Shown piece after piece: positions 25,601 through 62,953 of a stretch of DNA of 64,000 bases (position 1 is the stretch's first letter; each line of letters starts with the position of its first letter). The notes beneath the pieces were generated by a model. The model did not search any database, was not told the origin of the DNA, and saw only the letters and a list, made by a program, of their open reading frames with translations. The translations under genes and the position numbers were made by a program. Source of the DNA: an uncultured Clostridia bacterium (lineage in GTDB: Bacteria > Bacillota > Clostridia > Christensenellales > Borkfalkiaceae); NCBI GenBank assembly GCA_947627565.1, contig CANQWO010000005.1, positions 4,220-68,219 on the forward strand. Reading direction: 5' to 3'.

Positions 25601-25615
25601 GATTTCACTCCTTTT

Positions 25616-28462: not shown

Positions 28463-28473
28463 AGTCTTCCTCC

Positions 28474-29588: not shown

Positions 29589-29659
29589 GAAACATAAAAA
29601 AAGTTCTTTTTTATTTTTACATATGCCCAGACGCGGCAATTTTTTTTGTGCAAAAATAT

Positions 29660-40583: not shown

Positions 40584-42404
40584 TTACGCAACGGTCACTT
40601 CCGCGAGATTGCTGTAGAGCCCGAACGTCACGTCCTTCCCGTCCTCGGATCTCTGTTCAAGATAGAAGAGCACTTTTGCCTTGTTCCCCTCGCGGACGAC
40701 CTCGACGATCTCGCATTCCTTCTCCACTTTCCAACCGTTATAGGTATAGCAAGTGAGCGTCTTTTTCCCTGCGGTGAGTTCCGCCTCCGTCACGGACTGC
40801 GGCGCGACGAGATTCTTGACAATCATGGCGCAGCCCTCTGCCGCGTTCGTCGTCGCGACATTGCAGCGGATCGTGAAATGACGGAGGTCCTCAAACGTCC
40901 ACGTGTTCTGCGCATAGCCGCGCGCCATCCAGCTCGCATACTTCTGATTGGTCACGGCGCTCATCCGGTCGTTCGCATTGTCATACGTCATCTCATCGAG
41001 CGAGACATTGAATTTGCGCGTGATATTCTTCATGCAACTCGGAAGATTGCTCCGCTCGACATAGACGCCGCCCCAAGCGGTCGGGTACGGATTTTCGGTG
41101 CCTTTGGTATCATTCGTCTTGCCGGAAGTTGCGGCGCCGAGGAATCCGACCGGGATTTCCGGGCAAACCTCGCGCATCCGCTCCGCATAGACGGAGTAGA
41201 ATGTGATGGTAAACCAACGCCCCTTCATCTCGGGATACTTATCGATGATCTTCTTCATCGTCCCGATGGCGTCCAACCGATCGGCGTCGGCCGCCTTCGC
41301 GGAGCCTCCGTCGAATTTCAGCTCGAAGATGAAGATGACGTCGGTATCAAGAAGCAATTCGATCGTCTCATCCAGCGTCGGGAACGTATCCGCATACTTT
41401 TTGCTGTAATCGGTGAGATAGGCGGAACGGATCGCGTCCGATGTCGCCTCGGAGAAATAGAGATTGGTATCGGAAGTCGGCGAACTGTTGGAATTATGGC
41501 AAATAAAGATCTCCTTGTCCGATGAAATCTGAAGATCGAGCTCGATATGCGTCGCGCCTTCGTTGGCCGTAGCCGCGATCGCCGTCTTGGACTGCTCGTT
41601 GCAGTAATCGGTGATGCCGCGGTGCGCCGCGACGAACTGCGCCCGTGCGTAGCCGCTCTTTTCAAATACGCCGAGAGCGTCCTTCATATCCGCGAAGTTT
41701 TCGGACACCACGCCGTAGCATCCGGCCGCCATTGCCCTGACGGCCTCCTCCTTGCTCTCGGTAACCGCCCAACAGACTTTCGTCATGGCTTCGACGTATT
41801 CTGCGGCGACGGAAAGATTGGGAGCCGAGCCGTCATACATCAAAATGTTGCAACCGGCCTTATTGGCGGCGCCGACGTGGTCCCATTCATCATAACGCCC
41901 CGCGCCGATCTCCGCCTTTGTCAAGTCGTACACGGTATTGACGAGATATGCCTTCTCATCCGCATACAATTGTTCGATCACGGCGATGTCGTCTGAGACG
42001 GCCATCATGTCCGTGATAGAGTAGGTATTCTTTAACCAATTGAGGAACGGGCCCACGGTCGTCGCGTCGAGACGCACGATGGGAAGCAGTTTCCCCTTGA
42101 TGAATTGGTCAAACGTATCGGCCAACGATTTTTTCTCCGCGCCCAATGTGATGTCCATTTTGGCGTCGGGCGTGATGATGACGGAGGCCGCCTTCACCTT
42201 CCCCGCCGTTGCCTCTTCGATGCCCGCGAAGGACGTCGCCTCAAGCACCAAAGTCGGCTCCAACATGATGCCGCTTCCGTTATCCGAAATGTCAATATAG
42301 GTTTCGTAGGTCTGCGGGACAGCCCGCGCCTCGATGCCGGGCGCAACGGCTCCCCCGACCAAAACCAATGCCAATGCCGCTGCCAAGATCGCTTTTCTAT
42401 TCAT
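40584..42404 (-). CDS. Secreted protein with a glycerophosphodiester-phosphodiesterase (GDPD)-like domain
   Basis: Signal peptide present. AAHRGITDYCNEQSKTAIAATANEGATHIELDLQISSDKEIFICHN follows the GDPD HRG...EN...G...E.D...D....H pattern. RBS GAGGAGG plus 6 nt. Confidence 0.55.
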   Translation of the reverse strand: MNRKAILAAALALVLVGGAVAPGIEARAVPQTYETYIDISDNGSGIMLEPTLVLEATSFAGIEEATAGKVKAASVIITPDAKMDITLGAEKKSLADTFDQFIKGKLLPIVRLDATTVGPFLNWLKNTYSITDMMAVSDDIAVIEQLYADEKAYLVNTVYDLTKAEIGAGRYDEWDHVGAANKAGCNILMYDGSAPNLSVAAEYVEAMTKVCWAVTESKEEAVRAMAAGCYGVVSENFADMKDALGVFEKSGYARAQFVAAHRGITDYCNEQSKTAIAATANEGATHIELDLQISSDKEIFICHNSNSSPTSDTNLYFSEATSDAIRSAYLTDYSKKYADTFPTLDETIELLLDTDVIFIFELKFDGGSAKAADADRLDAIGTMKKIIDKYPEMKGRWFTITFYSVYAERMREVCPEIPVGFLGAATSGKTNDTKGTENPYPTAWGGVYVERSNLPSCMKNITRKFNVSLDEMTYDNANDRMSAVTNQKYASWMARGYAQNTWTFEDLRHFTIRCNVATTNAAEGCAMIVKNLVAPQSVTEAELTAGKKTLTCYTYNGWKVEKECEIVEVVREGNKAKVLFYLEQRSEDGKDVTFGLYSNLAEVTVA

Positions 42405-42415: not shown

Positions 42416-43009
42416 TCAGGTGAGCCCAACGATCAGCTCAAAGCTCGTCGTATAGTTGCCGCAATACACAGTGATGGTACAGCTTCCCCGACTGTTGGCC
42501 TTCACGCGGCCGATCGGGCCTTGATTTTCGACCGTACCGATCCCCTCGTCCGAACTCTCCCACCGGAAATCTTCGTCGGAGGCGCCCTTGCACTTTGCGC
42601 GCACCGTAACGATCGTCCCCTTGCGCAGGACCAAACGGCCCTCGGGGACCGTGACGGTGAGCGGCGACGCATTGACCGTCACATTGCAACTTCCGATCTC
42701 CGTCTCCCCGTCGGAAACGGTGATCACGGCGGTCCCCACCGTGAGGGCGGTGACGGTCGCCTGCGTGCCTTCGGCGGAGACGGTCGCGACCGCCTCGTTC
42801 GTACTGCTCCAAGTGTATTCGACGCCCGTCTCCGAAGCGGCATTGTCCGGAAGCTGTAATGTAAGCGACCCGCTTTCGCCGACGGTAAGCGTAAGTTCCG
42901 TTTCGCTGAGTTTCGGCTGTTCGGGTTCGCCGCCGGGCGTGTGCGTGCAGGCTGCAAAACACAGCATAGCGGCCGCGACGATCAGGATCGTCGATAGTAT
43001 TTTTTTCAT
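42416..43009 (-). CDS. Lipoprotein with two bacterial Ig-like (Big_2) domains
   Basis: Lipobox LCFAAC. LTLTVGESGSLTLQL...TWSSTNEAVATVSAEGTQATVTALTVGTAVITV matches Big_2, and a second copy follows. Confidence 0.75.
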   Translation of the reverse strand: MKKILSTILIVAAAMLCFAACTHTPGGEPEQPKLSETELTLTVGESGSLTLQLPDNAASETGVEYTWSSTNEAVATVSAEGTQATVTALTVGTAVITVSDGETEIGSCNVTVNASPLTVTVPEGRLVLRKGTIVTVRAKCKGASDEDFRWESSDEGIGTVENQGPIGRVKANSRGSCTITVYCGNYTTSFELIVGLT

Positions 43010-43012: not shown

Positions 43013-44533
43013 TCACTCCTTAGATCGATGTGATTTTAATTTCAGGCAGATCCCCATTTCGAACGTGCGGTTCCACGGGGACCACATGGCAAGGTCTTCA
43101 ACATGTTCCGCGAGTGACGGAAATTCTTTTTTCATATAGGAAAGCAATTCGGCTTTCCCCTCTTCGACGCACTTGCCGCGCACGCCGTCGAGCTCAAAAA
43201 CCGTGAGACCGTATTTCGGCACGGGCACCGTATCCACAAAATAGCGCGTATGCGAACAGTACCCGACGTCATCGTAGTAGCGGTGGAGCAAAAAAGCACG
43301 GTTGCCGGCCTCGTCTTTGCCGATCGCATACAGACAGCTCTCGCAGAGCACCGTCCCGATCGTGTTGGAAGAAGTGTTCCAGCCCGCATAGGCATGGATC
43401 TTCAAAAGCAGGTCTTCATCCCGAAGGAGACGGACGAGTTCGAGGTCGCTGTTGGTCGGCTCGGCAATGTCGGCTACGGCGACGGTCTTGCCCTCTTCCA
43501 AGGCATACTTCAGAAAGTCGAGATACTCCGGAAGACTGCGCTCGATATCATACGGAATGGTCCGCTCCTCCGCTTTGGGCAGATACAGCATCTCGGAACC
43601 GACATTGACGGCAAGCGCGATGTCGCACTCCGGGAGACTATATACCCTTCTGCACCCCGCCGCGAGGATCTGGTTCTTGACCGTTGCGTCGACCGTTCTG
43701 TCTTCAAACGACGGCGTAACGAACGGACCCTGCGCGGATGCGTAGTAAACGTAAATTTTCGGACGAATGCCGTGCGCTTCGTTGACAGCGCGGGCGAGCA
43801 ACGTCATGCCGACGTCGTCCGCGGCGGGATAGACGGGAACGCGGCTGCGCAGCCCGAGCGCTTTGATCCGGTCCGTCACGCTCGCCTGATCGAGCGCCGT
43901 AAACCCATAGGGCGCGCTGTCATCCTGCGGGACCAGAAACGTGTCGATGACCCCGTCCCGCACCCATTGCAGCGCAAGCATGAGGACTTGCAGATTGGTT
44001 TGGCGGCGCGCGGTATAATCGGCAAGCGCCTCGGGAGGGATCTTTGCTTTGATCTTGGCAAGATCCGCGCTCTCGGCCTCCGTCAGGATCCCAAGCCGCT
44101 CCTTGTACGTATAGACGCCGTAGCGATGGATCTCCGCGCCGCAGTCCCAATAGTAATCCGGTTCTTCGTCTCCGTTGGAAAACCGCGGACAGCGCATGAT
44201 CGTCTGAAATGCATAGATCCGAAGGTTCGGATCGCGCGCTTTGAGCGTCTTTACGATCTGCATGCGCGCGGCCAGCGTCTCTTCCGGATCATGGTGCAGG
44301 CGGGATGGGATCAAGCCGCCGTAGACGAGCGTATCCATGGATAAGATACATGCGTCTGCCCCCTCGGAAGCGGATAAAAGCCATGCGGAGAGAAGCGACC
44401 GATCCGCAGGTTTCCGCTTGTGTCCCAAGCACTGCGGCGGAGGCACAAGCAGCTCGTAGCCCGCCTTGGGCATGAGCGTCGGAAACTGCGCATTGCAGGG
44501 CCGTTCGTCGAGCGGCACCAATACGATTTTCAT
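43013..44533 (-). CDS. DUF4127 family protein (function unknown)
   Basis: Start ATG 44533 (MKIVLVPLDERPCN, the characteristic DUF4127 N-terminus). It overlaps the upstream stop region (TGA-T-ATG), with AAGGGG 5 nt upstream. Confidence 0.65.
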   Translation of the reverse strand: MKIVLVPLDERPCNAQFPTLMPKAGYELLVPPPQCLGHKRKPADRSLLSAWLLSASEGADACILSMDTLVYGGLIPSRLHHDPEETLAARMQIVKTLKARDPNLRIYAFQTIMRCPRFSNGDEEPDYYWDCGAEIHRYGVYTYKERLGILTEAESADLAKIKAKIPPEALADYTARRQTNLQVLMLALQWVRDGVIDTFLVPQDDSAPYGFTALDQASVTDRIKALGLRSRVPVYPAADDVGMTLLARAVNEAHGIRPKIYVYYASAQGPFVTPSFEDRTVDATVKNQILAAGCRRVYSLPECDIALAVNVGSEMLYLPKAEERTIPYDIERSLPEYLDFLKYALEEGKTVAVADIAEPTNSDLELVRLLRDEDLLLKIHAYAGWNTSSNTIGTVLCESCLYAIGKDEAGNRAFLLHRYYDDVGYCSHTRYFVDTVPVPKYGLTVFELDGVRGKCVEEGKAELLSYMKKEFPSLAEHVEDLAMWSPWNRTFEMGICLKLKSHRSKE

Positions 44534-44534
44534 A

Positions 44535-45830
44535 TCACCCCTTGACGGAGCCAAGCTGCAGGCCGCTCTTGATATACTTCACGACATAGGGATATATCAG
44601 GATGATGGGCACGATACTTGCGAGCATGGCGGCCGCTTCGACGTTTTTATGGTTGATGATCCACCAGCTATCCCCTCTCGTTTCGCGTTGAAGCATCAGA
44701 TAGAGGTGATATGCAAGCGGACGCGCTTCCCGGGCGCTGGACCTGATGAACAGAAGCGCCGTGCCATAGCCGTTCCAGCAGCCCACGATGGTGAAGAAGC
44801 AACACGTTCCGATAATGGGGAGCGACATCGGAACGACGATCAGGAAGAAGAGCTGAAGGTCGCTCGCGCCGTCGAGCCGCGCCGCCTCCTCGATATCCGT
44901 GGAGATCCCCTCAAAGAACGTCTTGAAATAAAGCATGTTGGCGACGTTGCTCAGCGAGATCAGGATCACCGACCAAATCGTATTGAGCAAGTGCATGAAT
45001 TGCATCAACAGATAGACGGGGACGATCCCGGCGGAGAACAGCATCGTGATGACAAAGAACATGAGGATGCCGCTGCGGAACGGGAAATCGCGCTTGGAGA
45101 GCGGATAGGCCGCGAGCGCCATCATGAGATTGGACCCCAGCGTCACGATCACGGTGATGATGACGGAATTTCCAAAGGAGCGCCAGAACAGGTAGGCGTC
45201 GTCCCCGACGAGCACATATTCGAGCGATTTGAGCGTCGGTGCGACCGGGAAGATGACCACCTGAAGGTTTCTCGTGCCGTCGTTGAAAGCCAGGGAGAAA
45301 TAGTTGAGCAACGGGATGCAGACGATGACGATCCCGGCGATCAGCGCCGTAATGTTGATGACGTTGAGCACAAGGTCCCCGCGGCTCTCGCGGATGCGGT
45401 TGGGATGGCGCGTGGAACGGCGCCTGCGTTCGGCATTTTTTTCCGCAGCCGACCGGATGCGCGCATCATTCTTCGCGATAAATCTTTCGTGGCCGATCTC
45501 TACGATTTCGTCTAAATCGGCGCCCCGAACGCCCAATTCCCACGCGTTGACATACGCAAATTGCTTGAAGTCGATGGCCTCGCCAAGCCCCAAAATCAAA
45601 AAGAGCGCGATGAGCAGGATCCCAAGCCAAGCGAGCGAAAAAATCGTGACAACGACGCCGATCCCGATGCCGAGCGTTAAACTGAGCAACGTGATCAAAG
45701 TTTTGGTGAGGGCGGGTTTGAAGACATTTTTGGAGTTCTTCGACCAATAGGCGTAGTGTTTGAACGAATAGTTGCCGAAGAACAATTTCACATCTTCCTT
45801 GAAGTTTCGGAGAAGCAGACTGCATTTCAT
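44535..45830 (-). CDS. Carbohydrate ABC transporter permease (LplC/MalG-like) with an N-terminal extension of about 150 aa
   Basis: EAA loop IEEAARLDGASDLQLF. The extension carries an extra TM hairpin (LITLLSLTLGIGIGVVVTIFSLAWLGILLIALFLILGL) and an Arg-rich segment (AEKNAERRRRSTRHPNRIRESR). The start is supported by AGGAGG plus 8 nt. Confidence 0.8.
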   Translation of the reverse strand: MKCSLLLRNFKEDVKLFFGNYSFKHYAYWSKNSKNVFKPALTKTLITLLSLTLGIGIGVVVTIFSLAWLGILLIALFLILGLGEAIDFKQFAYVNAWELGVRGADLDEIVEIGHERFIAKNDARIRSAAEKNAERRRRSTRHPNRIRESRGDLVLNVINITALIAGIVIVCIPLLNYFSLAFNDGTRNLQVVIFPVAPTLKSLEYVLVGDDAYLFWRSFGNSVIITVIVTLGSNLMMALAAYPLSKRDFPFRSGILMFFVITMLFSAGIVPVYLLMQFMHLLNTIWSVILISLSNVANMLYFKTFFEGISTDIEEAARLDGASDLQLFFLIVVPMSLPIIGTCCFFTIVGCWNGYGTALLFIRSSAREARPLAYHLYLMLQRETRGDSWWIINHKNVEAAAMLASIVPIILIYPYVVKYIKSGLQLGSVKG

Positions 45831-45843: not shown

Positions 45844-46899
45844 TTACCATAAGCCGCGTTTCAGCGTCTTCGATGTGATATAGTTGCCGCCGACCATGAG
45901 AATGAGCCCGATGAGTCCGTTGAAGACGCCGAGCGCAGTCGCGAACGGGACGTTGGTCGGCGTGTTGACGACGGAAATGTTATAGATATAAGTATCGAGC
46001 ACGATCTGGGCTTCGGTAAGCGTACCGGGGTCGACCTGCATCATCGTATAGACGAGTTCGAAGCCCGTCGCCATCATGCCGCTGATGTTGAGCACCAACG
46101 TGAGGGCGATCGTGGGCAAGATGGAGGGAATGGTCAGGTACCACATCTTCTGCAACTTGTTTGCGCCCTCGAGCGTGGCGGATTCATAATACGTCTTATC
46201 AATGGCCATGATCGCGGAGTAATAGAGAATACATCCCCATCCTCCGCTCTTCCACGCCGAGAAGAAAATGACGAGCGGCTTAAACCAGGCATTTTCCGCC
46301 ATGATATTGCCCGTATATCTCCCCAAAAGGCCGATCGTCGGGTCGAGGAAGCCCTGCCAGATACCGATAACGATCGCCCACGAGAGGAAGTTGGGAATAC
46401 TGAGAATGATCAGGATCGCCTTCGCGAGCCCTTGGTTCTTCAAGTCGGAAAGCTGTACGGCGATGAGAATGGAGAGCGGGAAACAGATCAAGAGGCGGAT
46501 CACGCTGATGAGCAATGTGTTTCCGACCGCCCTGCCGAAGGAATCGTCGTAGAAAATGTCGATAAAGTTTTGGAAAGTCCAGCTTGCGTGCGTCAGATTG
46601 TAGAGGAGATCGGCCTTTTGCAGGTTGAAATCCGAGCCACGGAACGCAAATATGACGCCGCACATCGGGACATAGCCGAAGATCAGCGTAATCATGACGG
46701 CAGGCAGGAGAAACGCGATCAGATTGCGATGCTTCTTGATGCGTTTCCATTCCACTTTCCAAAATCCGGGGTCGGGATCATAGGCGAACTTCGGCGCAGA
46801 CGGCGCCGTCTCCGCCATTTCGACCGTTCCCGGAAGTGTAGGATCCCCCACCGCCTCGGCGGCGGGGGATTCGCTTGTCAGGTTCAAATCACCGTTCAT
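45844..46899 (-). CDS. Carbohydrate ABC transporter permease (LplB/MalF-like)
   Basis: Multi-TM protein with the loop YESATLEGANKLQKMWYLTIP. RBS GAGGTG plus 4 nt. Confidence 0.85.
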   Translation of the reverse strand: MNGDLNLTSESPAAEAVGDPTLPGTVEMAETAPSAPKFAYDPDPGFWKVEWKRIKKHRNLIAFLLPAVMITLIFGYVPMCGVIFAFRGSDFNLQKADLLYNLTHASWTFQNFIDIFYDDSFGRAVGNTLLISVIRLLICFPLSILIAVQLSDLKNQGLAKAILIILSIPNFLSWAIVIGIWQGFLDPTIGLLGRYTGNIMAENAWFKPLVIFFSAWKSGGWGCILYYSAIMAIDKTYYESATLEGANKLQKMWYLTIPSILPTIALTLVLNISGMMATGFELVYTMMQVDPGTLTEAQIVLDTYIYNISVVNTPTNVPFATALGVFNGLIGLILMVGGNYITSKTLKRGLW

Positions 46900-46923: not shown

Positions 46924-48891
46924 TCAACCGTTTTTCTGCGTTTGAGATTGAATATAGGAGTTATACCAATTCGTCATTTCCTCGGAGATCGCGTCCGACC
47001 AATAATAATATTTGGTACCGGAGATCTTGACGGATGTCGCAAGCGCGCCGTCCAAATAGATCTGATAGTCCTTGAGCGGATCACTCGACTTGATCGAAGT
47101 CTCCACGCCCGTGAGCAGGTAGCTGCGGGACGTGATATTGACGGGCGACCAAAGTTTGAAGGGCGGAGCCATGGCGAGCGGATTGGGAATCCACTCCTCG
47201 GGATCGGCAAAGTAATCGCAGTAATACCAAGCCTTGAAGCCGAGCTCGTGCAGGTGGCAGTAGACCTTGGCCGCAATGGCGTTGGTCCCGGTGCAATATT
47301 GCGAGTTGTCGGCGATGTAGTCCACATAGCGCTCGGTGATCTTGATCCAACGGCCGGGCTCGTCGACGACGACCGTCACGGGCGAACCGTCTTCGCTGAA
47401 TCCGCCGACGTCCTTCGTGCGGGTATCGACGTATTCATAGTGCATGGGACGGACGAAGCAGATGCCCTCTTCGAAGTCCTCGTATGCGGTATACTTGTCG
47501 TCGGTCGCCTTGTCCGATTTGTAATCCGCCGCGGCGGGCGCACCCGTCGGCGTAGGGATCTCATACCAGTGCGTTTCTGTGGGGAATTTCGCGGGATCGT
47601 TGCCGTATTGTTCCTGGTCGGCGAGGAGCAATCCGTTGCCGCCGAAGAAATCGGCGAAGCATTCCATCTTCTTTGCGAGATAGTCGATGACGTAGCGGGC
47701 ATTCTTCGCCATGTAGTTGGGAATGACCGTGAAATACGAGCTGCCGCCGGAACTTCCGGGGAGTTTGGATTTCGTCTGATTCTTGCAGGAGACGGGATTT
47801 CCCTGCGGGTCATTGAACGTATAGCCGTCGCCGCGGAGCCGCGTGCCCCACTTGATGGCCTTGTCGTGGATCTCTTGGACCGTATTCGCATAGCCGTTGT
47901 TGCTCGCAAAATTTTTATTGCCGACGATGGTATCGATAAACGGCGTGAGATTCCAATACGTCACGTAAGCGACGGAGTGATTCTCCTCCGCAAACATCTG
48001 GGCGACGGTATTGCTGCTGGAAGTGTTCCAGTTGTCGGCAAGGACATGATCGTTATACAGCTTGTTCATGTACAGAATATAATCCTGCATGTTGGGGCTG
48101 TAATTCTTGATCTGGATTTTGCCGTCGCCGTCCACATAGAAGTTATACGGCACTTCGAAGCAACCCGTGATCGGGTCGATCTCCGCCGAGGCCGCGCCGG
48201 GAACACCGAACGCGTTATAGGACTTCTTGGAGCCGAACGTCTTCTGAAGTTCTTCGACGGCCCAGGTAAATTCCCCGAGCGTTTCGGGAATGTCGTGATT
48301 ATATTGCTTTGAGAAGCCGATCTTCTCCAAATGCTTCACGTTCCAGACAAGCGCGGAGCCCGTCATGTTGACGTAGCCGAAGTCGGGAATGGCATAGATG
48401 TGCTGTACGCCCTTGCTGTCGGTATATTTCACCGATTCCCAGCCGTAATCCATGAGATCGACGAGCTGATAGAGCACCTTCCCTTCCGGCGTATTCTCGA
48501 GAAGTTCCGTGAGATCGAGGAAGGAACCGCCCTCATAGCCGTCCGCTTCGAGATACGGCGTATAGCAGCCGTCGTTGAGCTTCATGAAGTCATACGGCTC
48601 CTGGTTCATGAGCGCATTCGAAATTTCGCCTTCTACACTCGCACCGGTCAATTCTTCATATTTGACCTTGTAACCCGTCTTCGCCTCGATGATGCGCGAT
48701 GTATCGTCGTTGCCGAAAGTTTTCATGCCCGAATCGGGGAAGAGCCCGGTGAGTTCAATGGGTTTGGAAAGATCGACGTCCCAGTCGATGTCCGCCGTCT
48801 GGTAGAGCGTACCCCCGCCGCAACCGACGAGCGCGGCGGCCGCGGTGGCGAGCATCGAGACGGCCAGCGTGATGCTGAGAAACTTCTTCAT
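46924..48891 (-). CDS. ABC transporter solute-binding lipoprotein (large LplA-type)
   Basis: Start ATG 48891 (AGGAGG plus 5 nt). Lipobox ALVGCGGG. It precedes two CUT1 permeases. Confidence 0.8.
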   Translation of the reverse strand: MKKFLSITLAVSMLATAAAALVGCGGGTLYQTADIDWDVDLSKPIELTGLFPDSGMKTFGNDDTSRIIEAKTGYKVKYEELTGASVEGEISNALMNQEPYDFMKLNDGCYTPYLEADGYEGGSFLDLTELLENTPEGKVLYQLVDLMDYGWESVKYTDSKGVQHIYAIPDFGYVNMTGSALVWNVKHLEKIGFSKQYNHDIPETLGEFTWAVEELQKTFGSKKSYNAFGVPGAASAEIDPITGCFEVPYNFYVDGDGKIQIKNYSPNMQDYILYMNKLYNDHVLADNWNTSSSNTVAQMFAEENHSVAYVTYWNLTPFIDTIVGNKNFASNNGYANTVQEIHDKAIKWGTRLRGDGYTFNDPQGNPVSCKNQTKSKLPGSSGGSSYFTVIPNYMAKNARYVIDYLAKKMECFADFFGGNGLLLADQEQYGNDPAKFPTETHWYEIPTPTGAPAAADYKSDKATDDKYTAYEDFEEGICFVRPMHYEYVDTRTKDVGGFSEDGSPVTVVVDEPGRWIKITERYVDYIADNSQYCTGTNAIAAKVYCHLHELGFKAWYYCDYFADPEEWIPNPLAMAPPFKLWSPVNITSRSYLLTGVETSIKSSDPLKDYQIYLDGALATSVKISGTKYYYWSDAISEEMTNWYNSYIQSQTQKNG

Positions 48892-49130
48892 TTTTTCCTC
48901 CTTATACAAACTGAAAAACTCAGATTTTTTACGAATTGAAACTTGCGCGGATCACGCGGAATGTGATCGATGTTTGGAACGATGTTACAAAAATTTTCCC
49001 CCCCGACCCCATTCCCGCAAAGCGGAAACGGGGTGGGATGGAGGAAAAAATACTTGCGCGATCTCCGTTCGCCCTACCCCGCCGAAGCGGGGCGGACGAA
49101 ATGAAGATCAAAGGAGTAAATTATGAAACG

Positions 49131-52100
49131 TTATGCGCCCTGAGGGCCGGTCTGTGCCGTAATGGCGGATTCGACGACCATGGGAACGCGCGTCGAGCCG
49201 TCATCAGGAGCAACCAACTTGCCGCCCGCAGCTTCGATCAGGGGATTGAGATAGGTCTCGAGCAGTTCGCCCCACCACATGATCTCCTTGTCAGCCTTTT
49301 TCACGATGAGGTCTTCGTCGATGTAGTAAAGCCACTCGTAGTGGACCATGGTATGGAGGTCTTTGCCATTGTAGAACGCCCAAGCGAAGGAGCCGTTGTA
49401 GAAGGAATTGTGATTCCCGTAACGGTGTCCGGTTTCCGGAGTCTTCAGCATATACTTGTTGATGACTGCCGCCATTTCAGCGTCCACATAGTTGACTTCT
49501 TTGTTGATGATACGAGCGATCTGTTTGCCGACATTCCAGAGATACTCAAGGTCTCTCCAGGTGCCCTCGCCGCGCGTGAGACCGGTAGCTTTGTCTTCAC
49601 CGCCGCCGGCACGGATCATGTCGACCACTTCTTCCATGTAGTCGACTTCGATTTCGAGCTCATGGGCATATTGATAGAGGTAGAATGCTCTCCATGCGTT
49701 GGCAATGCATTCATTTGTTCCATAGTGCTCGAAGCAGAGGAACATGGTGGCATCGCCGGCGCAATTTAAGCTGTTGTGCAGAAGAACTTGGTTCATGAAC
49801 CCGCCGAATACCGCGGTATAGGCGACCGTGAAAGTCGATGTGGAGCCGCCCGTGGAGGTGTTGAGCATCTTGACGGTGACATTCTGTTCCACAGGTACCG
49901 CTTCGACGACCGCATACTGCGTATCAAGGGTAGCCCAACGTTCCCAAGCCTCTTCGCCGGCAAGTTCCTTTATGCGCGCCTGTTTGGTCGCATCGAGTTC
50001 CGCAACGGATTCCTTCAGAACACGGAAGGAGGCAAGAGAATCAAGCATGAGTTTGCCATCGACCGGCTTGCCATCTGCGCCGTTGGGACGATTGTTCCAA
50101 GCGACCCAAGCAGTGAGATCGGTGAGGTCACCGAGCGCTCTGAACTGACGGACAAAATTGGCGACATCGGCCTCTTCGTCTGCGAGATCGTCCACGATTG
50201 CAGGAGCGGGGATTGCATGCACAGTCGTCTTCACGAGCATGGGCTCGCCGTTACCATTGGAAGGAGCAAGCAGAAGCCCTTCATAGCCCGCGCTCTTGAG
50301 GAGATCGTTGACTTTCTTGATCGCGGCCGCCCAGTTGTTGCCTTTCGTCAAAGACGAGAGATTGGTATCGATGCAGTTCATCCAATTTGCATTGAACGAC
50401 TTGATGTTGCCGACGGTTCCCGCATAGTAAGCATAGGCGAAGGTGCCATTGTACCAGCACTGATTCGTGCCGTATTTGGTCGAGCTGTTTTCATGATTGG
50501 CAACCATGTAGTGATTGACGTAGTAAGCAAGTTCGGCATCGAGATAGGTGCATTCGCCGCGAAGGATACGGCCGATCTGCTTGCCCATATACCACATGTA
50601 ATCGAAGTCGATCATGAGGCCCGCGCCCGCGTCAAGACCCGTATATTCGGGGTTGGAGGAGCCGGTGTGCGCGATCATATCGTGGATGTCGATGATGTAG
50701 TCGATAGCGACATTGTACTGTGCAAGCGCCTTTTCGAGATAGAGCGCATACATGGAGTTCTTCCAGCAATCCTGGTGCTCGACGCAGAGATAGCCCTGGC
50801 CGGCCTTGCCGGCCCCGTCGGTGCAGGTTTGGGCGGCGCTGTTCTTCCAGAACATGTGGTCGACGTAGCGGGCGAAGATCACATTCCGGCTGACTTGCTC
50901 GGTGGCGCTGAAATCGTCCTTCCAAATTTCGACCTGCGTCTCATCGGATTGAACAGCGTACCAATCGTTATAGAGTTTCAGCCAATCGCCGAAGACGGTA
51001 TCCGCAAGCGCTTCGCGAACGAGCGTCTGCTGGTCGCCTTCAAGCTCTGCATACTGCGCATAGACGGCATTGAACATGGAGAGCTCATCATAGAGATAGC
51101 CCGCGGTCTGCCCGCCATCGGTGGAGAAGCCCTTCCAAGCGGTGACATCATAGAGATCGGAAAGTTTCAGCGCTTTGAACGCCGTCACGACTTCCGTCGC
51201 TTCCGTGCTGAGGGTTCCGGGCGCCTTATCAAGCGCGGTGACGTCTTCGGCCACTGCAACGCCGTTATCCGCGATCTTGACGTCCGCCTTCGCGGCCTTC
51301 ACGATCTTAAGAACGGTTTCCTCAATGACCTTTTGGAAAGTTCTGCCATTGAAGCTGAATCCGAAGTAGATACCCCAATTCGCTTCGCCGCTCAATGACA
51401 TGCTGCCGTTCTTTTGGTCGATATTCCAATTAAAGTTGGGTTCCTTGAAATCAAAATTCTTCGTCGCGTTGACGACGGCCGCAAGTTCGGCGTCGAGATA
51501 GGTGCATTCGCCGTTTTCAATGCGAGCGACCTGCGTGAAGACGGGTTTGATGTAGTTTTCCCAGTCGTTGAGCATGCCTGCGCCGTTATACTGATTTTCG
51601 CTGTCCGAAGCCGCCATGAGGTTGATCAGGACTTCGAGATAATCCAGTTCAACATCGTTCTCATTGAGAATGTCGCGGATGTTGAGCACGCGGAACGTCT
51701 TGTTTGCGCCCTCAACCGTACCCGCGAACAGAAGCCTGTTCTCTTCATCTGTGTGTTCCGGGTTTTTCATCGCGCAAGGGAAGCGCATCGAAGCGGCCGT
51801 ATCGAAGAGCGTCGCAACGAGTTCTCTGCCGCTGAGCGTTTCGAGGCCGCTCATGTCGAGCTTGGGCACCGTGAACATCTTGGAGCCGAACGTACCAAAT
51901 TCGATCTCGGTGAGCTGTTCGTAGAGCGCGACCCAACGGGTCCACGTCGTGCCGCCAAGGTCCGTTACACCTCTCTGATCGGCGGTCGGAAGCTGATTGA
52001 ATTTCGCATAGAGTTCGCCGAAGACTTCCACCGCTTCGCTATAGAGATAGCCGGTCTTGGAAGGAGCTTCCGCGGGAGCCTTGTAGCCTTTCCACGTGTT

Positions 52101-53837
52101 GACGTCGAGATTGGTGAGCGTTTTCAATGCGTCAACGATCGCCTGCCCCTCTTCGCTGATCGACACGTTGTCTTCATAGACTTTCTGCGCCGCGAGGTAA
52201 GGTGCGAAATCGACTGCATTGTAGACGTAGCCCGCAAGCGAGGAAGCGGCCGCATCGCCGTTTCCATACAGCTTGCCGACTTCGTCGAGCTCATCGGTAT
52301 ACTCGGAAGCAGTCTCGGCAGTGATCGCGGAGAGCGCGTCGATTTGAGCCTGCACCGTCTTGAGTTCGCCAGAGAGATCGGCGGGCGTGTAGGCCTCATA
52401 CGAGAAGCTGAACGTCTCGTGTTCGTCGAGCGAATAGTCGATATAGGTCTGATTCTGGAAGAGCGTATAGTTGTAGATGCCCTTCGTGATGTCTTCGTAA
52501 CCGACTTTCGTGGACCACCACTTGCCGCGATAAGCGTCCTGAATGGGCTTTTTGTATTCCACGTTGGTCATCTCATCTGCGGCCGGGAAGTAGATCTCGC
52601 TGTTTTCGAAGACGATATTTTCGAACTTCGCGCCGTTGGTGTAGTCCGTCGCGCCGATGGTATCCTTGAGCTTGGCGTCTTTTTCGACGACGTCGAGCCC
52701 GACGGAGAAGAAGAAACCGTTGGTCGGGTCGAACGACTGACCGCTGTTGTCCTTATTGATGAACTCATCGTCGATCTTGACGTTGAGCAAGGTCTCCGTG
52801 CCGGACGTGACGGTGAGGGAATCGTAGAAATACTTATCGCCGTCTTCATCTTCGTCGCTGACTTCCTTGATCTCGAACGTGAGGGTATCCTTATCGGGCG
52901 TGAAATAGCCGCCCGTTTCGTCCCACGTGGAGGTCATGAGTTTGTCGCCGAGATAATACTCGTTTTCGACGATGGCATTGGAGCTGGGCGCATGTCCGAT
53001 ATATTCATACCAGACGCCCGTCGCCGTATCGCACGCGATACCGATCTCGTTGGTGTACTTACCGGCGCCGATGTAGAAGCCGAGGAACGCATAGACCTTG
53101 TCCTCAACGCCGTCGTAGGGAGGCGTGATCTTGGTTTCGCTCAGATCGAGGGTGTATCTGCCGCCCGTCGCACCGGAATCGCGCACGGGGATGCACTTGA
53201 TGGAAGCGTCCATCGAGGGATTGTGTTCCCAAGCGCGGCCGCCGTCCTGGAGCGGAGACTTCGCAAGATCCTGGCCGAGACCGTCTTTCGTCGCATAGCC
53301 GTTGACCGCCTGCGCCGTCTCGACGCCCTTGCTGACCTGATAGGTCGTCCACTTCTGATTCAGGATGCGGGTGAACGGAACGCCCGTCGACCAAGGCTCA
53401 TAGCCGAGAAGGCCGCCGTTTTCGTCGTAGTAATAGTAAACGTCGCCTGCATTTTCGCCGAAGCCCTTCCTGTTCTGGAAGACTTTGTGCGTCGAGCCCT
53501 TCATCAGGACATAGGAGCCGATCGTGTTATACGCCGTCTCCTTCGCCTCGAACTCGTCTACGTCGTTGTCCACCGCGGCTCTGATCGCGTCCACGAGGTT
53601 GCTGTGGTCGCTGACCTTCGTGCCGTCTTTGCCGTAGACCGAATATTGGTCGGCCACGCGGGGGTCGCTCTTCCCTTTCTTGACCTCGTCATCGACCACT
53701 ACGGGACCGGGATCGGGACCGGGGCCGGGATCAGGGCCGGGACCGGGATTCGGCTTCTTCTTGCCGCAAGCCGCGAGGCCGGCGACAGTAGAAAGAACCA
53801 TCGCCGAGCTGAGCAATAGTGCTACATACTTTTTCAT
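49131..53837 (-). CDS. 1,568-aa surface lipoprotein of unknown family, with three tandem Cys-containing helical modules of about 310-355 aa
   Basis: AGGAGG plus 5 nt, then ATG. Lipobox GLAACGKK followed by a PNPGPGPDPGPGPDPGP linker. The three modules lie at nt about 52154-51216, 51215-50202 and 50201-49134. They share W.G...G.LY, C.EH, DY...MI, GKQI.RI, EC.Y.DAE.A..VN.YM and L.AP..G...PM.V. I recognise no known catalytic or binding motif. Confidence 0.8.
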   Translation of the reverse strand: MKKYVALLLSSAMVLSTVAGLAACGKKKPNPGPGPDPGPGPDPGPVVVDDEVKKGKSDPRVADQYSVYGKDGTKVSDHSNLVDAIRAAVDNDVDEFEAKETAYNTIGSYVLMKGSTHKVFQNRKGFGENAGDVYYYYDENGGLLGYEPWSTGVPFTRILNQKWTTYQVSKGVETAQAVNGYATKDGLGQDLAKSPLQDGGRAWEHNPSMDASIKCIPVRDSGATGGRYTLDLSETKITPPYDGVEDKVYAFLGFYIGAGKYTNEIGIACDTATGVWYEYIGHAPSSNAIVENEYYLGDKLMTSTWDETGGYFTPDKDTLTFEIKEVSDEDEDGDKYFYDSLTVTSGTETLLNVKIDDEFINKDNSGQSFDPTNGFFFSVGLDVVEKDAKLKDTIGATDYTNGAKFENIVFENSEIYFPAADEMTNVEYKKPIQDAYRGKWWSTKVGYEDITKGIYNYTLFQNQTYIDYSLDEHETFSFSYEAYTPADLSGELKTVQAQIDALSAITAETASEYTDELDEVGKLYGNGDAAASSLAGYVYNAVDFAPYLAAQKVYEDNVSISEEGQAIVDALKTLTNLDVNTWKGYKAPAEAPSKTGYLYSEAVEVFGELYAKFNQLPTADQRGVTDLGGTTWTRWVALYEQLTEIEFGTFGSKMFTVPKLDMSGLETLSGRELVATLFDTAASMRFPCAMKNPEHTDEENRLLFAGTVEGANKTFRVLNIRDILNENDVELDYLEVLINLMAASDSENQYNGAGMLNDWENYIKPVFTQVARIENGECTYLDAELAAVVNATKNFDFKEPNFNWNIDQKNGSMSLSGEANWGIYFGFSFNGRTFQKVIEETVLKIVKAAKADVKIADNGVAVAEDVTALDKAPGTLSTEATEVVTAFKALKLSDLYDVTAWKGFSTDGGQTAGYLYDELSMFNAVYAQYAELEGDQQTLVREALADTVFGDWLKLYNDWYAVQSDETQVEIWKDDFSATEQVSRNVIFARYVDHMFWKNSAAQTCTDGAGKAGQGYLCVEHQDCWKNSMYALYLEKALAQYNVAIDYIIDIHDMIAHTGSSNPEYTGLDAGAGLMIDFDYMWYMGKQIGRILRGECTYLDAELAYYVNHYMVANHENSSTKYGTNQCWYNGTFAYAYYAGTVGNIKSFNANWMNCIDTNLSSLTKGNNWAAAIKKVNDLLKSAGYEGLLLAPSNGNGEPMLVKTTVHAIPAPAIVDDLADEEADVANFVRQFRALGDLTDLTAWVAWNNRPNGADGKPVDGKLMLDSLASFRVLKESVAELDATKQARIKELAGEEAWERWATLDTQYAVVEAVPVEQNVTVKMLNTSTGGSTSTFTVAYTAVFGGFMNQVLLHNSLNCAGDATMFLCFEHYGTNECIANAWRAFYLYQYAHELEIEVDYMEEVVDMIRAGGGEDKATGLTRGEGTWRDLEYLWNVGKQIARIINKEVNYVDAEMAAVINKYMLKTPETGHRYGNHNSFYNGSFAWAFYNGKDLHTMVHYEWLYYIDEDLIVKKADKEIMWWGELLETYLNPLIEAAGGKLVAPDDGSTRVPMVVESAITAQTGPQGA

Positions 53838-53889
53838 AATTTCCTCCTATTATCCTCGTTTTGAACATAAGGATAGAATTTGTATTTTC

Positions 53890-53918
53890 ATTTTAACCCA
53901 CAAATGCAGTTTTGTCAA
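53890..53918 (-). promoter_or_regulatory. Promoter of the 1,568-aa lipoprotein / ABC operon
   Basis: On the minus strand: TTGACA (53913-53918), 17 nt, TAAAAT (53890-53895). The box AAAAATTTTTTTCATAA lies upstream at 53923-53939. Confidence 0.6.
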
Positions 53919-54046: not shown

Positions 54047-54074
54047 CAAAAAAAGCCCTCCCGAACGGGAGGGC
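54047..54074 (-). terminator. Terminator of the GH31 operon
   Basis: On the minus strand: GCCCTCCC-GTTC-GGGAGGGC followed by TTTTTTTG. Confidence 0.75.
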
Positions 54075-54095: not shown

Positions 54096-56093
54096 TTAAG
54101 GTTCGACCGTGACTTCGACGAGGCCCTCGGCGATGCCGGATCTCGTGAATCCGTCGTCCGTCGCCAACTCATAGACCGTCGGCGCGTCGATAAATTTGAG
54201 CCAGGTGAGGTGCGTTTCGTCGAGCGAGGCGACGTTCGGGGCGGGCTTTGCGAGCGGCACGACGGTCCCCTCCCGCACGAAGAAGATAATTTCGTTGAGT
54301 GCGACCTCGATGTAATACTCCCCTTTCTCCAAGACGCGTTCGGTGTAGCGGTCCCCCGCTCTCATACGGATCATCTTCATGCGCGCAGGCAGATAGACGT
54401 ATCTCCCCGCTGCGTTCTGTTCGCAGACGGGCGCGATCATGATGCTGTTTCCTACAAACAACTGATCCTCCACCGTCTTGGCGCGTTTATCGTCGGGATA
54501 TTCGAAGCAGAGCGGCTTAAAAAGCATCTCGCCCCGAAGCGCGGCCTTCACAAATTCGCTGTACAAATACGGCAAGAGCGCATACCGCATGCCGAGAATG
54601 TTTTTGAACGCCCGTTTCTCTTTGAAGAGATAGGGCTCCTGTTCGCGCGAGCCGTTGGTTGCATGATTGCGCATGAGCGGCGTGAATACGCCGAATGCGA
54701 GCCAGCGGAGCAAGAGGTCCTCCGTCGTGTTGTAGCAGTGCCCGCCGAGATCGGCGCCCGCGTAGAGGAATCCGCACATGTCCATACCGGGCATCTGCGC
54801 GATATTGTGGCGCAGATGGGTCCACCACGAGGAATTGTCGCCCGTCCAGATGCCGCCGTAGCGGTGCGCGCCGATATAGGAAGCGCGCGAGAAGAGCAGA
54901 TAGCGCCTGTCGGGGCAATATTGTTCGAAATATTCCGCTGCGCCGCGCGTCATGTTGTAGCCATAGAGGTTATGCACCTCGGCGTGCGAAATGCGCTTGC
55001 CGTCCACGTTGTGATGCAGAGCAGCGTAATCCTCCGGGCTGTTTTGAAGGGAATTGATGGCGTAGGAGACCTTATTGAAGGCGTGCGTATCGAGATTGCG
55101 GTCTTCGATGGAGGCGATGTAATCGAGCGCCTCCGCGAGACGGCCCGTGCTGTAGAAGATGGCGGGCTCGTTCATGTCGTTCCAGAAGCCCTCGATGCCC
55201 TGATCGAGCAGCGCCTTATACTGCGAACCGAACCAATTCCGCGCTTCGGGATTGAGCACGTCGGGGAGCAAGCTCTCGCCCGGCCAGACGGCCACGACGT
55301 AGGGTTTCCCCTCGCTGTCCGTGCAAAAATAGCCGTTTGCAAGGCCCTCTTCGCAGACGGAATACCCCTCCTGCACTTTGACGGCGGCGTCGATAATGGG
55401 AACGAGATAGACGCCCTCGGCCTTTAAGTCTGCGGCGAGCTTCGAAAGATCGGGGAACCGCTCGGGGTGAACGGTGAAATCCTTGTAATCGAGCATGTAA
55501 TCAATGTCCATATAGATCATGTCGATCGGGAAGTCGTTCTTGCGGAAGCCCTCGAAGACGGTGCGGATATCCGCTTCGTTCTTGTAGCCCCAGCGCGATT
55601 GGCCGTAGCCGAACGCCCACTTGGGCGGGATATAGCTCTGCCCGATCAGCATCCGAAATTCATGCACGATGGCGAGAATGCTCTCGGCCTCGATGATGTA
55701 GACGTCGACGTTTTTCGCCGTGACGGCGAGCTCGTCGGGATCGGTGTAGCCGATATCGAAGGTCACCTTATCGGCGCTGTCGAAGAAGACGCCGAATGTT
55801 TTTCGGCCGTTCACGACGATAAAGTTGTGTGCGCCGTAAAGAGAGACGCGCGCCTCGTTGATGTTGGGATCGTCGGCGTTGTAGTTCTCGTAGATCCAGC
55901 CGCGCTTATTGATGCCGCGGACCTGCTCGCCCAACCCGAAAACTGCGTCTTCCTTCCCGAGCGGATAGCGGAAAACCGCAGCGCCGTCTTTCTCGCTCTG
56001 CGTGAAGTATGCGTCGGGCGCGGGCGTCACGGGATATTCCTGAACAGTGGCCTCAGTGGGAAAAGGGCTTCCGTAGCGATATTTCTTGATCAT
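54096..56093 (-). CDS. GH31 alpha-glucosidase/alpha-xylosidase family enzyme
   Basis: Motifs KWAFGYGQSRWGY, GFWNDMNEP and GIWTGDNSSWW. RBS GGAGG plus 6 nt. Confidence 0.85.
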   Translation of the reverse strand: MIKKYRYGSPFPTEATVQEYPVTPAPDAYFTQSEKDGAAVFRYPLGKEDAVFGLGEQVRGINKRGWIYENYNADDPNINEARVSLYGAHNFIVVNGRKTFGVFFDSADKVTFDIGYTDPDELAVTAKNVDVYIIEAESILAIVHEFRMLIGQSYIPPKWAFGYGQSRWGYKNEADIRTVFEGFRKNDFPIDMIYMDIDYMLDYKDFTVHPERFPDLSKLAADLKAEGVYLVPIIDAAVKVQEGYSVCEEGLANGYFCTDSEGKPYVVAVWPGESLLPDVLNPEARNWFGSQYKALLDQGIEGFWNDMNEPAIFYSTGRLAEALDYIASIEDRNLDTHAFNKVSYAINSLQNSPEDYAALHHNVDGKRISHAEVHNLYGYNMTRGAAEYFEQYCPDRRYLLFSRASYIGAHRYGGIWTGDNSSWWTHLRHNIAQMPGMDMCGFLYAGADLGGHCYNTTEDLLLRWLAFGVFTPLMRNHATNGSREQEPYLFKEKRAFKNILGMRYALLPYLYSEFVKAALRGEMLFKPLCFEYPDDKRAKTVEDQLFVGNSIMIAPVCEQNAAGRYVYLPARMKMIRMRAGDRYTERVLEKGEYYIEVALNEIIFFVREGTVVPLAKPAPNVASLDETHLTWLKFIDAPTVYELATDDGFTRSGIAEGLVEVTVEP

Positions 56094-58005: not shown

Positions 58006-59100
58006 TTATTGGATGACGCGGCGGATCGCCCGCTCGTAGGAATCCGCAAGCGCGACCATGCCGACATCGTTCGGATGGATGCCATCCGTTGTGAACTCCG
58101 TGTAGTTCCCCTTGAAGATCTTCGAGCCGTCTTCAAAGCGGATGCGAAAGCCCCTCTTTCGGTACTTTTTGGCGAGATTCCTCAAAAAGGCGCGATAATA
58201 ATCCGCCATTTTTACCCGGTACTCGTCGAAAAGGTCGAGCGAAAACAAGATGCGCGAATACAGGATCACAGGCGCGGACGGATTTCTCTCGAAGAAGGCG
58301 TCGAGGAAGGGCTCGGCGTTGTCGCGCAGGCGTTCGTCGCATCCCGCGTTGGGCTCGACGTCGACGAGGAGCAGATCGAGTTTGCGGTCTCCGATGATCT
58401 CCCCCATCTCTTTCTCCATCATGGCGCATCCGGAGAATCCGAAATTCAACACTTCGCAGTCCAATCTGCGCGACAGGATATTGGTCGTCGCCATGCCGGG
58501 CCGCGAAGCGCTGCACCCGTGAACGATGCTCGTGCCGTAGACGCCGATGCGCATCTCGTTCCCGAACGGCACGGGCCGCACCGCGGCGTCGCGGTCGAGG
58601 CCGATCTTCATCTCGTCCACGGCCATATAGAGGGGCAGATTGAAGATATATTTGCGCATCTTCCGGGGCAGCTTTTCCATGCGATTCATGGAAAGCTCAT
58701 ACTCGTCGGCATCGAATTGATAGCGCGCCACTTCGATCATGCCGTATCCCCCGATCCGCTCGTCATAGACATAGAGATCCATGCCGCACTGTCCGATCTG
58801 GGTCATATTGGTCATGTCGAACTTACTGCGCAGTTTGACGTGAATGAAGATCTGCCGGGAATCCGTCTCGAACTTGATCTGGATCCCCGCGGAGTGCTGG
58901 CCGAGCCAACCCTCGCCGTCGTTGACGGGCCAAATCAATTGCTGCTCCGCCTTCGTCAGCCGCTGAATGCCCGCTTCCCCGCGCGGGACATCGGTATTGT
59001 AGATCCCGAATCTCTCGTCTTTCGCGTCCCGCCATACGACATCGTGCGGCGTTCTGTCTTCCATCGCGAGATTTTTATCGAAATCAAAGACGCTCTTCAT
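58006..59100 (-). CDS. SGNH/GDSL-family hydrolase (carbohydrate esterase-like) with an N-terminal beta-sandwich
   Basis: Block I is GVYGTSIVHG and block V is DGIHPND. RBS GGAGG plus 6 nt. Confidence 0.7.
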   Translation of the reverse strand: MKSVFDFDKNLAMEDRTPHDVVWRDAKDERFGIYNTDVPRGEAGIQRLTKAEQQLIWPVNDGEGWLGQHSAGIQIKFETDSRQIFIHVKLRSKFDMTNMTQIGQCGMDLYVYDERIGGYGMIEVARYQFDADEYELSMNRMEKLPRKMRKYIFNLPLYMAVDEMKIGLDRDAAVRPVPFGNEMRIGVYGTSIVHGCSASRPGMATTNILSRRLDCEVLNFGFSGCAMMEKEMGEIIGDRKLDLLLVDVEPNAGCDERLRDNAEPFLDAFFERNPSAPVILYSRILFSLDLFDEYRVKMADYYRAFLRNLAKKYRKRGFRIRFEDGSKIFKGNYTEFTTDGIHPNDVGMVALADSYERAIRRVIQ

Positions 59101-62893: not shown

Positions 62894-62924
62894 AACAACT
62901 TCCTCCTTATCGGTAACTGCGTCT

Positions 62925-62953
62925 ATTATAATCCCCAAATGAAAATTTGTCAA
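62925..62953 (-). promoter_or_regulatory. Consensus promoter of paralogue A
   Basis: On the minus strand: TTGACA (62948-62953), 17 nt, TATAAT (62925-62930). The box AAAAAAATTTTTTTCATAA lies upstream at 62958-62976. Confidence 0.65.

Follow-up and report, generated by a model that had tools for sequence, protein, structure and literature searches.

The window analysed here is a 64,000-nucleotide stretch from an uncultured gut Clostridia bacterium (GenBank assembly GCA_947627565.1, contig CANQWO010000005.1, positions 4,220 to 68,219), and its minus strand holds an open reading frame of 1568 codons with an ATG start that encodes a large lipoprotein directly upstream of a solute-binding protein (SBP) and two ATP-binding cassette (ABC) permeases. 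The N-terminus of the lipoprotein reads MKKYVALLLSSAMVLSTVAGLAAC, followed by GKKK, and has a positively charged n-region, a hydrophobic h-region and a lipobox of the form L-[ASV]-[GA]-C (LAAC), as is typical of type II signal peptides, with Cys24 as the lipidated residue. After the lipobox comes KKKPNPGPGPDPGPGPDPGP, a flexible tether rich in Pro, Gly and Asp. A preliminary description made from the DNA letters had named both the lipobox and a (PGPD)n linker, and the sequence bears this out; all full-length relatives likewise carry a lipobox, and their tethers, rich in Pro, Gly, Asp and Glu, are similar. The tether leads into a β-rich region, a helical bundle and three tandem helical modules (M1 to M3), whose positions are collected in Table 1 with those of the neighbouring genes and signals. 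Upstream of the ribosome-binding site, where AT-rich DNA separates the gene from the terminator of the preceding glycoside hydrolase (GH) family 31 gene, the sigma-70-like sequence at 53918-53890 is the top promoter match in the 16.5 kb scanned. Because just as many matches in total are expected from shuffled sequence, the "strong promoter" proposed at this place stands as a consensus match at 11 of 12 positions and is read here as that alone.

The three modules are clearly related to one another. When the protein was cut at the module boundaries of the preliminary description and the pieces were compared by BLASTP, M2 matched M3 over all 330 residues (E = 1.5e-38), and M1 gave matches of partial extent to M2 (E = 3.5e-16) and M3 (E = 4e-12). 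The uncut protein compared with itself returned the identity match only, the repeats becoming visible once it is split. A hidden Markov model (HMM) built from modules of the family placed the boundaries at residues 559-872, 875-1212 and 1220-1565, within a few residues of those proposed, and the threefold repeat is thus confirmed at a level far beyond chance. No likeness to the modules was found by BLASTP of the pieces in the N-terminal 500 residues or in the segment 480-570. In the three-way alignment of the modules, the columns W21, G35/L37, E133-H134 and D171-Y172 are invariant, together with the block Q208...R211-I212...E216..Y219.D221-A222-E223.A225...N229. The motif blocks quoted for the modules beforehand reappear as these invariant columns, except that the last of them, L.AP..G...PM.V, is common to M2 and M3 only and that the paired cysteines are not kept across the wider family; a metal or disulfide role of the cysteine pairs was dropped for this reason.

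The repeat is an old one. Identity among the three copies of the protein is only 24-29%, and the number of modules per family protein runs from 1 to 7, with a mode of 3. For 50 of 54 modules in three-module proteins, the closest match from another genome sits at the same rank, and the triplication is therefore ancient, each position having been retained as a distinct paralog. This positional orthology implies that the three modules have probably kept three distinct specificities. Conservation was quantified over 97 non-redundant modules, in M2 numbering (M2 being residues 875-1212 of the protein). No column is invariant at this depth; W78 and N234 are each conserved in 93% of modules, G29 in 91%, Y40 in 89%, G39 in 88%, D203 in 77%, E44 in 76%, E228 in 73%, W30 in 72% and Y206 in 70%. 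The conserved residues are chiefly aromatic with a few acidic or amide side chains, and conservation at the best-conserved positions is the same whether a module is first, middle or last. All four polar residues (E44, D203, E228 and N234) occur together in only 48 of the 97 modules. The modules consist of 12-13% aromatic residues and are acidic, with an isoelectric point (pI) of ~4.5 and a net charge of −18 to −22.

By sequence, the protein stands apart from every family with which it was compared. Searches of Pfam-A and NCBIfam gave no match for the whole protein at E ≤ 0.1 or for its four separate pieces at E ≤ 10, and 33 modules and 14 N-terminal regions of the family, scanned one by one, returned only unrelated singleton noise. 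Searches of all PDB sequences with phmmer and with profiles gave nothing credible for any part, and known catalytic and carbohydrate-binding module (CBM) families of CAZy showed no significant profile match in Pfam-A or NCBIfam. A word-indexed search of 5.8 billion proteins retrieved only 27 relatives, the best of them 42% identical; none has a Pfam domain, and their sources are without exception metagenomes or Clostridia metagenome-assembled genomes (MAGs). An exhaustive HMMER search of 1.84 billion representative proteins with the module profile found only 40 carriers, with 1-7 modules each.

The structural comparison of the module gave the same result. An AlphaFold2 (AF2) model of M2, computed from an alignment of 33 modules, has a mean predicted local distance difference test score (pLDDT) of 87.7 and a predicted template-modelling score (pTM) of 0.89, and shows a single compact, mostly helical domain of ~13 helices with a few short strands. 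Foldseek searches with this model against PDB and BFVD gave no match at E ≤ 0.001, the best PDB match having E = 0.098 and a template-modelling (TM) score of 0.16. Among helical folds that act on glycans, (α/α)6 barrels such as GH76 and SusD-like TPR proteins showed no significant similarity in Foldseek; the likeness to GH76 was rejected (E = 0.14-6, TM 0.13-0.17, root-mean-square deviation >20 Å), as were matches to S-layer homology (SLH) and S-layer proteins (E > 3). The module is thus, by the tests available here, an orphan in both sequence and structure. The preliminary description had called the modules helical and of an unrecognised family and had proposed HMMER and AlphaFold/Foldseek runs on one of them; those runs agree with it on both points and matched no characterised family.

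The N-terminal region, by comparison, models as a known fold. The AF2 model of residues 46-560 (alignment of 14 sequences; pLDDT 88.2, pTM 0.87) is composed of three parts, a small α/β subdomain, a large β-sandwich and a four-helix bundle that leads into M1, with the β-rich stretch covering residues ~65-480 and the four-helix stretch following it. The top Foldseek matches, all at probability 1.0, are Bacillus subtilis YncM (4hfs, E = 9e-6), the scytalidoglutamic peptidases 2ifw and 1s2b (E = 2e-5 and 1.6e-4) and the protease CPAVM1 (8xai, E = 5.6e-5), with target-normalised TM scores of 0.45-0.57 and identities of 10-13%. The polysaccharide lyase (PL) family 28 ulvan lyase 6d3u follows at E = 1.7e-3 (probability 0.95, target-normalised TM 0.35, identity 7%), and LG domains are found in the same list. 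The core of the region therefore models as a concanavalin-A-like (ConA-like) two-sheet jelly-roll, closest to G1 peptidases and YncM. The earlier account of a β-rich region of about 500 residues without a signature holds for the β-content and for the absence of Pfam and PDB-sequence matches, and gives way on the fold, which is recognisable. Since lectins, CBMs, several GH and PL families and G1 peptidases all use the ConA-like fold, it narrows the possible functions and does not decide among them. The region differs from G1 peptidases, YncM and PL28 ulvan lyase, with which it has the two-sheet jelly-roll core in common (as it has with LamG/LG domains), by ~80 extra insertion columns, by the lack of a sequence-profile relationship and by its fusion to a lipid anchor and to orphan helical modules.

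No part of the family is better conserved than this region: 38 columns are invariant across 14 diverse members, and the motifs in them include GIACDTxTGxWY, AGLD and DYxNGAKFEN. In the numbering of the model (protein residue minus 45), conserved residues of the region are D165, D186, C224, W231, W260, D337, D353, E361 and N362. It is present in 46 of 60 family sequences, the remainder being mostly fragments; one lipoprotein (P0042) consists of modules without the N-terminal region. A word-indexed search with the N-terminal profile returned 2 proteins and nothing new.

The genes downstream encode what appears to be an importer of the CUT1 type, with two adjacent same-strand BPD_transp_1 permeases and a family-1 SBP. 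As a single sequence, the 655-aa SBP has no match in Pfam, NCBIfam or PDB. A profile of 23 of its relatives (A4) matches 3omb_A at 1.5e-10 and 6fth_A at 2e-8 over the N-terminal ~300 positions, and among 68 relatives a few match PF13416 or PF01547 (SBP_bac_8/SBP_bac_1) and one is named an extracellular solute-binding protein. From these sequence relationships the protein is a very divergent family-1 SBP. It resembles large family-1 SBPs (3omb and 6fth; LplA-like) in this profile match, in its lipobox and in adjoining the two permeases, and differs from them in being ~100 residues longer and too divergent for Pfam, NCBIfam and single-sequence PDB searches. Two of its relatives (P0089 and P0094) carry a rubredoxin Pfam match. 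The permeases match PF00528 at E = 1.5e-11 and 7e-9, and their nearest NCBIfam models are UgpA, UgpE, MalG and GlcU, all below the cut-offs. The binding protein and the two permeases that had been placed downstream are thus both upheld, the former only through the profile from distant relatives. The second permease has 431 residues, compared with 303-320 in two related loci (L001 and L003), the extra ~130 N-terminal residues containing hydrophobic stretches; the spacing in L006 suggests that this extension is common to the closest relative.

The stop codon of the large gene and the SBP gene are separated by a spacer of 239 nt. Its predicted fold has two long hairpins rich in GC, with UUUUU after the second, and a minimum free energy of −94.4 kcal/mol (z = −6.7). 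Spacers at the same place in related loci span 64-565 nt and are mostly strongly structured. Rfam found no family in 40-56.5 kb of the window, spacer included, so the spacer is no known RNA element, and no consensus promoter was found within it on the gene strand. Its sequence suggests that it may be a leaky terminator or an element for mRNA stabilisation or processing. The common strand, the conserved gene order and the lack of a spacer promoter would fit co-transcription; the two strong hairpins, one with its U5 run, could be a terminator.

Conservation of the arrangement was surveyed in 185,579 species-representative genomes by a degenerate-pattern scan with the N-terminal profile, which returned 34 loci; a scan of the same collection with the single protein found no relative, and the alignment-based scan was needed. 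Almost all of these loci belong to MAGs of uncultured Clostridia, Christensenellaceae or Christensenella, recovered from the gut of rabbit, chicken and mouse and from the rumen. Synteny was then followed by tblastn of the window proteins against the 34 loci and three contigs from the protein collection. Of the 33 loci that extend far enough downstream, 32 have the large gene, the SBP gene and the two permease genes side by side on one strand, and the exception (L037) has the same order with the SBP gene ~2.7 kb past the stop codon of the large gene; four further loci end too early (L004 and L020) or stop before the second permease (L028 and L031). This order is kept although the large protein is only 27-48% identical, so the association with the ABC genes on which the preliminary description had staked its proposal is a conserved one.

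Beyond the transporter, related loci repeatedly carry genes for a DUF4127 protein, a second GH31, a Big_2 protein, a GDPD and a GH26-like protein downstream, and genes for NAGPA, a GxDLY/SGNH esterase, DUF4127, a ROK kinase, GH20C and GH31 upstream, with GH36, a GNAT or an RpiR-type regulator as occasional upstream members. The window carries the same gene set from ~35.5 to 63 kb, and the conserved locus covers ~25 kb. Its GH31 enzyme is closely related to the Ruminococcus/Blautia α-glucosidase 3n04 (E = 5e-240). Export signals are found on seven locus proteins (the large protein, the SBP, the GH26-like protein, GDPD, Big_2, NAGPA and the 668-aa protein), and GH31, GH20C, GH36, DUF4127 and SGNH are without one, a division consistent with capture and trimming outside the cell and subsequent breakdown in the cytoplasm. 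Literature searches on the module family, DUF4127 or such a locus returned no paper from the library that could be searched, which is not proof of absence, and those on phosphodiester glycosidase, CPAVM1, YncM, teichoic-acid utilisation and GP-PDE/ORF58 returned nothing functional or relevant.

Table 1. Genes, protein segments and signals in and around the lipoprotein gene (positions in the window)
Feature	Position	Strand	Description	Basis
Lipoprotein coding sequence	49131-53837	-	1568 aa, stop codon included	Open reading frame
Type II signal peptide	53766-53837	-	aa 1-24, lipobox LAAC, lipidated Cys24	Sequence; all full-length relatives likewise
Pro/Gly/Asp-rich tether	53694-53765	-	aa 25-48	Sequence
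N-terminal β-rich region	52371-53693	-	aa 49-489; small α/β subdomain and ConA-like β-sandwich with insertions	AF2, Foldseek
Helical bundle	52164-52370	-	aa 490-558; joins β-rich region to modules	AF2 model helices 445-512
Helical module 1 (M1)	51216-52163	-	aa 559-874; orthologous to first modules of relatives	BLASTP, alignment, HMM
Helical module 2 (M2)	50202-51215	-	aa 875-1212	BLASTP, alignment, HMM; AF2 model
Helical module 3 (M3)	49134-50201	-	aa 1213-1568	BLASTP, alignment, HMM, rank test
Ribosome-binding site	53843-53848	-	AGGAGG, 5 nt ahead of ATG	Sequence
Sigma-70-like promoter match	53890-53918	-	TTGACA-17-TAAAAT, 11/12 positions	Consensus match only
Terminator of upstream GH31 gene	54055-54074	-	GC hairpin and T-run	Sequence
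Structured spacer	48892-49130	-	Large gene to SBP gene	Folding
Divergent family-1 extracellular solute-binding lipoprotein	46924-48891	-	655 aa from ATG at 48891	Profile search
ABC permease	45844-46899	-	BPD_transp_1	Pfam, NCBIfam
ABC permease	44535-45830	-	BPD_transp_1, MalG/UgpE-like; N-terminal extension of ~130 aa	Pfam, NCBIfam
DUF4127	43013-44554	-		Pfam (E = 5e-146), synteny
Big_2 lipoprotein	42416-43009	-		Pfam, synteny, signal peptide
Secreted GDPD	40584-42404	-	606 aa	Pfam, synteny, signal peptide
GH26-like lipoprotein	38565-40574	-		Pfam, synteny, signal peptide
GH31 α-glucosidase	54096-56093	-		Pfam, PDB, synteny
GH20C	56109-~57950	-		Pfam, synteny
GxDLY/SGNH esterase	58006-59100	-		Pfam, synteny
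NAGPA-type phosphodiester glycosidase lipoprotein	59113-~60693	-		Pfam, synteny
668-aa lipoprotein	60947-62953	-	No Pfam match	N-terminus, synteny

From this context we favour, with a probability of roughly 45%, a role of the 1568-aa protein in glycan capture or processing at the cell surface, at the front of a Gram-positive glycan-utilisation locus, where it would feed the ABC importer. The protein would be tethered to the membrane through Cys24 and the flexible linker, and an anchor at the N-terminus would place the ConA-like domain close to the membrane and the modules distal to it. Each of the three diverged helical modules might recognise one feature of a polymeric substrate through a candidate contact set of aromatic and acidic residues (K-G-W, G-Y-L..E, W78, D203, Y206, E228 and N234), and the ConA-like domain could bind or cleave the polymer beside the SBP and the permeases. 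The polymer would be trimmed by the exported GDPD, the NAGPA-type phosphodiester glycosidase and the GH26-like enzyme, and the fragments would be handed to the neighbouring SBP and imported, with cytoplasmic α-glucosidase, hexosaminidase, α-galactosidase and esterase predicted to complete the breakdown. The presence of a GDPD and a NAGPA-type glycosidase together with exo-enzymes for α-Glc, α-Gal and HexNAc and an esterase suggests a phosphodiester-linked, glycosylated polymer. A teichoic-acid-like polymer is our leading guess for the substrate, drawn from general knowledge of GlpQ-type teichoicases and of NAGPA chemistry. A capture role is also consistent with the copy number of 1 to 7, a spread typical of modules for binding or avidity but not of catalytic domains, and with the ConA-like N-terminal fold, which is found in many lectins, CBMs, GH and PL families.

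Several observations weigh against this interpretation. There is no experimental or homology-based tie of the protein to a glycan-binding or glycan-active family, and the closest structural neighbours of its N-terminal domain are peptidases rather than glycan-active proteins. Known CBMs are almost all small β-sandwiches, and a 330-aa helical module resembles helical enzyme domains more. The acidity of the modules argues against simple charge-based binding of a polyanionic teichoic acid. At the level of the operon, the hairpin-rich spacer could be a terminator, so that membership of the large gene is only putative, and the locus has no ATPase gene; an ATPase encoded elsewhere is usual for CUT1 systems of Firmicutes.

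One alternative is that the modules are themselves a new catalytic family, be it of glycoside hydrolases, lyases or phosphodiesterases, with paralogous specificities, while the ConA-like domain does the binding. We regard this as unlikely, though the least so of the alternatives. Compact helical domains of ~330 residues are common among glycan-active catalytic domains and rare among CBMs, E44, D203, E228 and N234 are conserved whatever the position of the module, the positional orthology speaks for three distinct functions that have been maintained, and no endo-enzyme for a polymer backbone is obvious in the locus apart from the GDPD and the GH26-like protein. On the other side, no residue is invariant across modules and the full polar quartet is kept in only 48 of the 97; up to 7 tandem copies are unusual for catalytic domains, and Foldseek gave no link to a helical GH or PL fold (GH76 at E ≥ 0.14). 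The distal position of the tandem modules relative to the N-terminal anchor, their variable number, the co-conservation of at least six other exported proteins and the lack of a catalytic or binding signature recognised by Pfam, NCBIfam or Foldseek would fit a mainly structural protein, whose modules would cross the wall as a stalk or docking scaffold and gather the SBP, NAGPA, the GH26-like, Big_2 and 668-aa proteins into a complex at the surface. Stalk domains are usually small, recently duplicated and near-identical, whereas these modules have diverged to 24-29% identity and keep their positional orthology; the aromatic and acidic set kept at every position points to contact with a ligand, and single-module family members exist. 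A scaffold is for these reasons improbable.

The least probable alternative by far takes the N-terminal domain as an active eqolisin-like (G1) glutamic peptidase and the protein as a surface protease that is not directed at glycans. It draws on the top Foldseek matches to 2ifw, 1s2b, 8xai and 4hfs described above, but their low identity is accompanied by the lack of any Pfam Peptidase_G1 match in 14 family members, even at E ≤ 1, and of any PDB profile match. The fold is generic to lectins, GH and PL families, with PL28 and LG-domain matches in the same list, the whole conserved neighbourhood consists of carbohydrate and phosphodiester enzymes with a sugar-type ABC importer, and G1 peptidases work at acid pH. 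Returning to glycan capture or processing at the surface, a more specific form of it is that the helical module is an undescribed fold that recognises or cleaves a phosphodiester-linked glycan, such as a teichoic-acid-like polymer of other gut bacteria, and that with its ConA-like partner it forms a new class of surface glycan-capture protein, specific to the ~25-kb locus in Christensenellales-like Clostridia of herbivore and rodent guts. This we put forward tentatively, as somewhat less probable than the general role.

The closest counterparts by layout are the anchored multimodular proteins found at the head of Gram-positive polysaccharide utilisation loci (gpPULs) that use importers of the CUT1/LplABC type. 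Like these, the 1568-aa protein is lipid-anchored, stands directly upstream of an SBP and two permeases among glycoside hydrolases and has tandem accessory modules, with the ATPase encoded elsewhere. Unlike them, its N-terminal region and modules match no CAZy-type catalytic or CBM family represented in Pfam or PDB, and its repeated unit is a 330-aa helical domain rather than a small β-sandwich CBM. The family is a real and narrowly distributed orphan, with an N-terminal region of known fold class and no family and a module that has neither. Because the layout is familiar and no new mechanism is demonstrated, the system is not categorically new, and large unannotated surface proteins are common in gut Firmicutes. 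Gut Clostridia of the Christensenellales type are abundant, linked to host health and almost uncultured, and their nutrient acquisition is largely unknown. In these bacteria the family escapes all standard annotation and yet holds the key first position of a strongly conserved locus, in which a sugar importer is accompanied by enzymes of uncommon types, namely DUF4127, GH20C, a secreted GDPD and a NAGPA-type phosphodiester glycosidase. Should the modules bind or cut glycan, the carbohydrate-binding or carbohydrate-active modules would gain a new fold, and the modules would help in finding the substrate of the locus, perhaps the cell-wall polymers of other bacteria. With AF2 models of this confidence, constructs for expression and crystallography can be designed readily.

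Other members of the locus and its relatives deserve mention. DUF4127 is among the most constant members, often in two copies (in L001 at 322-1845 and 18465-19985); it has neither a signal peptide nor a PDB relative and is a second orphan worth characterising. Among the weak PDB matches of the 606-aa GDPD are entries of ~840 residues named 'GP-PDE domain-containing protein, ORF58' (9euf and others), which may bear on a teichoic-acid-type substrate. Some genomes contain two paralogous loci with the large protein (L005/L006 in Lapin-002__bin92 and L015/L020 in Lapin-032__bin10), which suggests diversification for different substrates; the second copy in L005 has its own SBP gene before the contig end, and L020 ends too early to tell.

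Elsewhere in the window, a second locus at 19531-33943 on the minus strand likewise has a large surface protein at its start, with ABC genes and GH32 enzymes behind it, and offers an analogy within the same genome. It looks like a locus for fructan utilisation and encodes a 1427-aa protein (MBG_2, weak DUF6273), two permeases, a 672-aa Ig-like protein, a PfkB kinase and two GH32 enzymes. A 591-aa protein of this locus without a Pfam match is possibly another divergent SBP, though not a paralog of the 655-aa SBP. At 3-14897, on the minus strand, lies an open reading frame that is cut by the window end and has at least 4,965 codons; scanned against Pfam in three pieces, it gave no match save one noise match. 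The module and N-terminal HMMs found nothing in the six-frame translation of the window beyond the 1568-aa protein, so that the giant reading frame and the proteins of the 668-aa type are unrelated to it. The latter comprise two paralogous exported proteins of ~670 residues without a Pfam match (60947-62953 and 63103-63996, both on the minus strand), homologs of which recur beside the large-protein locus in related MAGs (L005, L006 and L010). Directly after its lipobox the 668-aa protein has the motif H-V-D-A-[DN]-x-[DN]-G-x-C-D-x-C (62771-62809, minus strand), which three relatives of the large protein carry in the same place (P0001 at residue 38, P0030 at residue 30 and P0033 at residue 39). 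Judged by its sequence, the motif may form a small Cys-knuckle or metal site common to surface lipoproteins of the clade.

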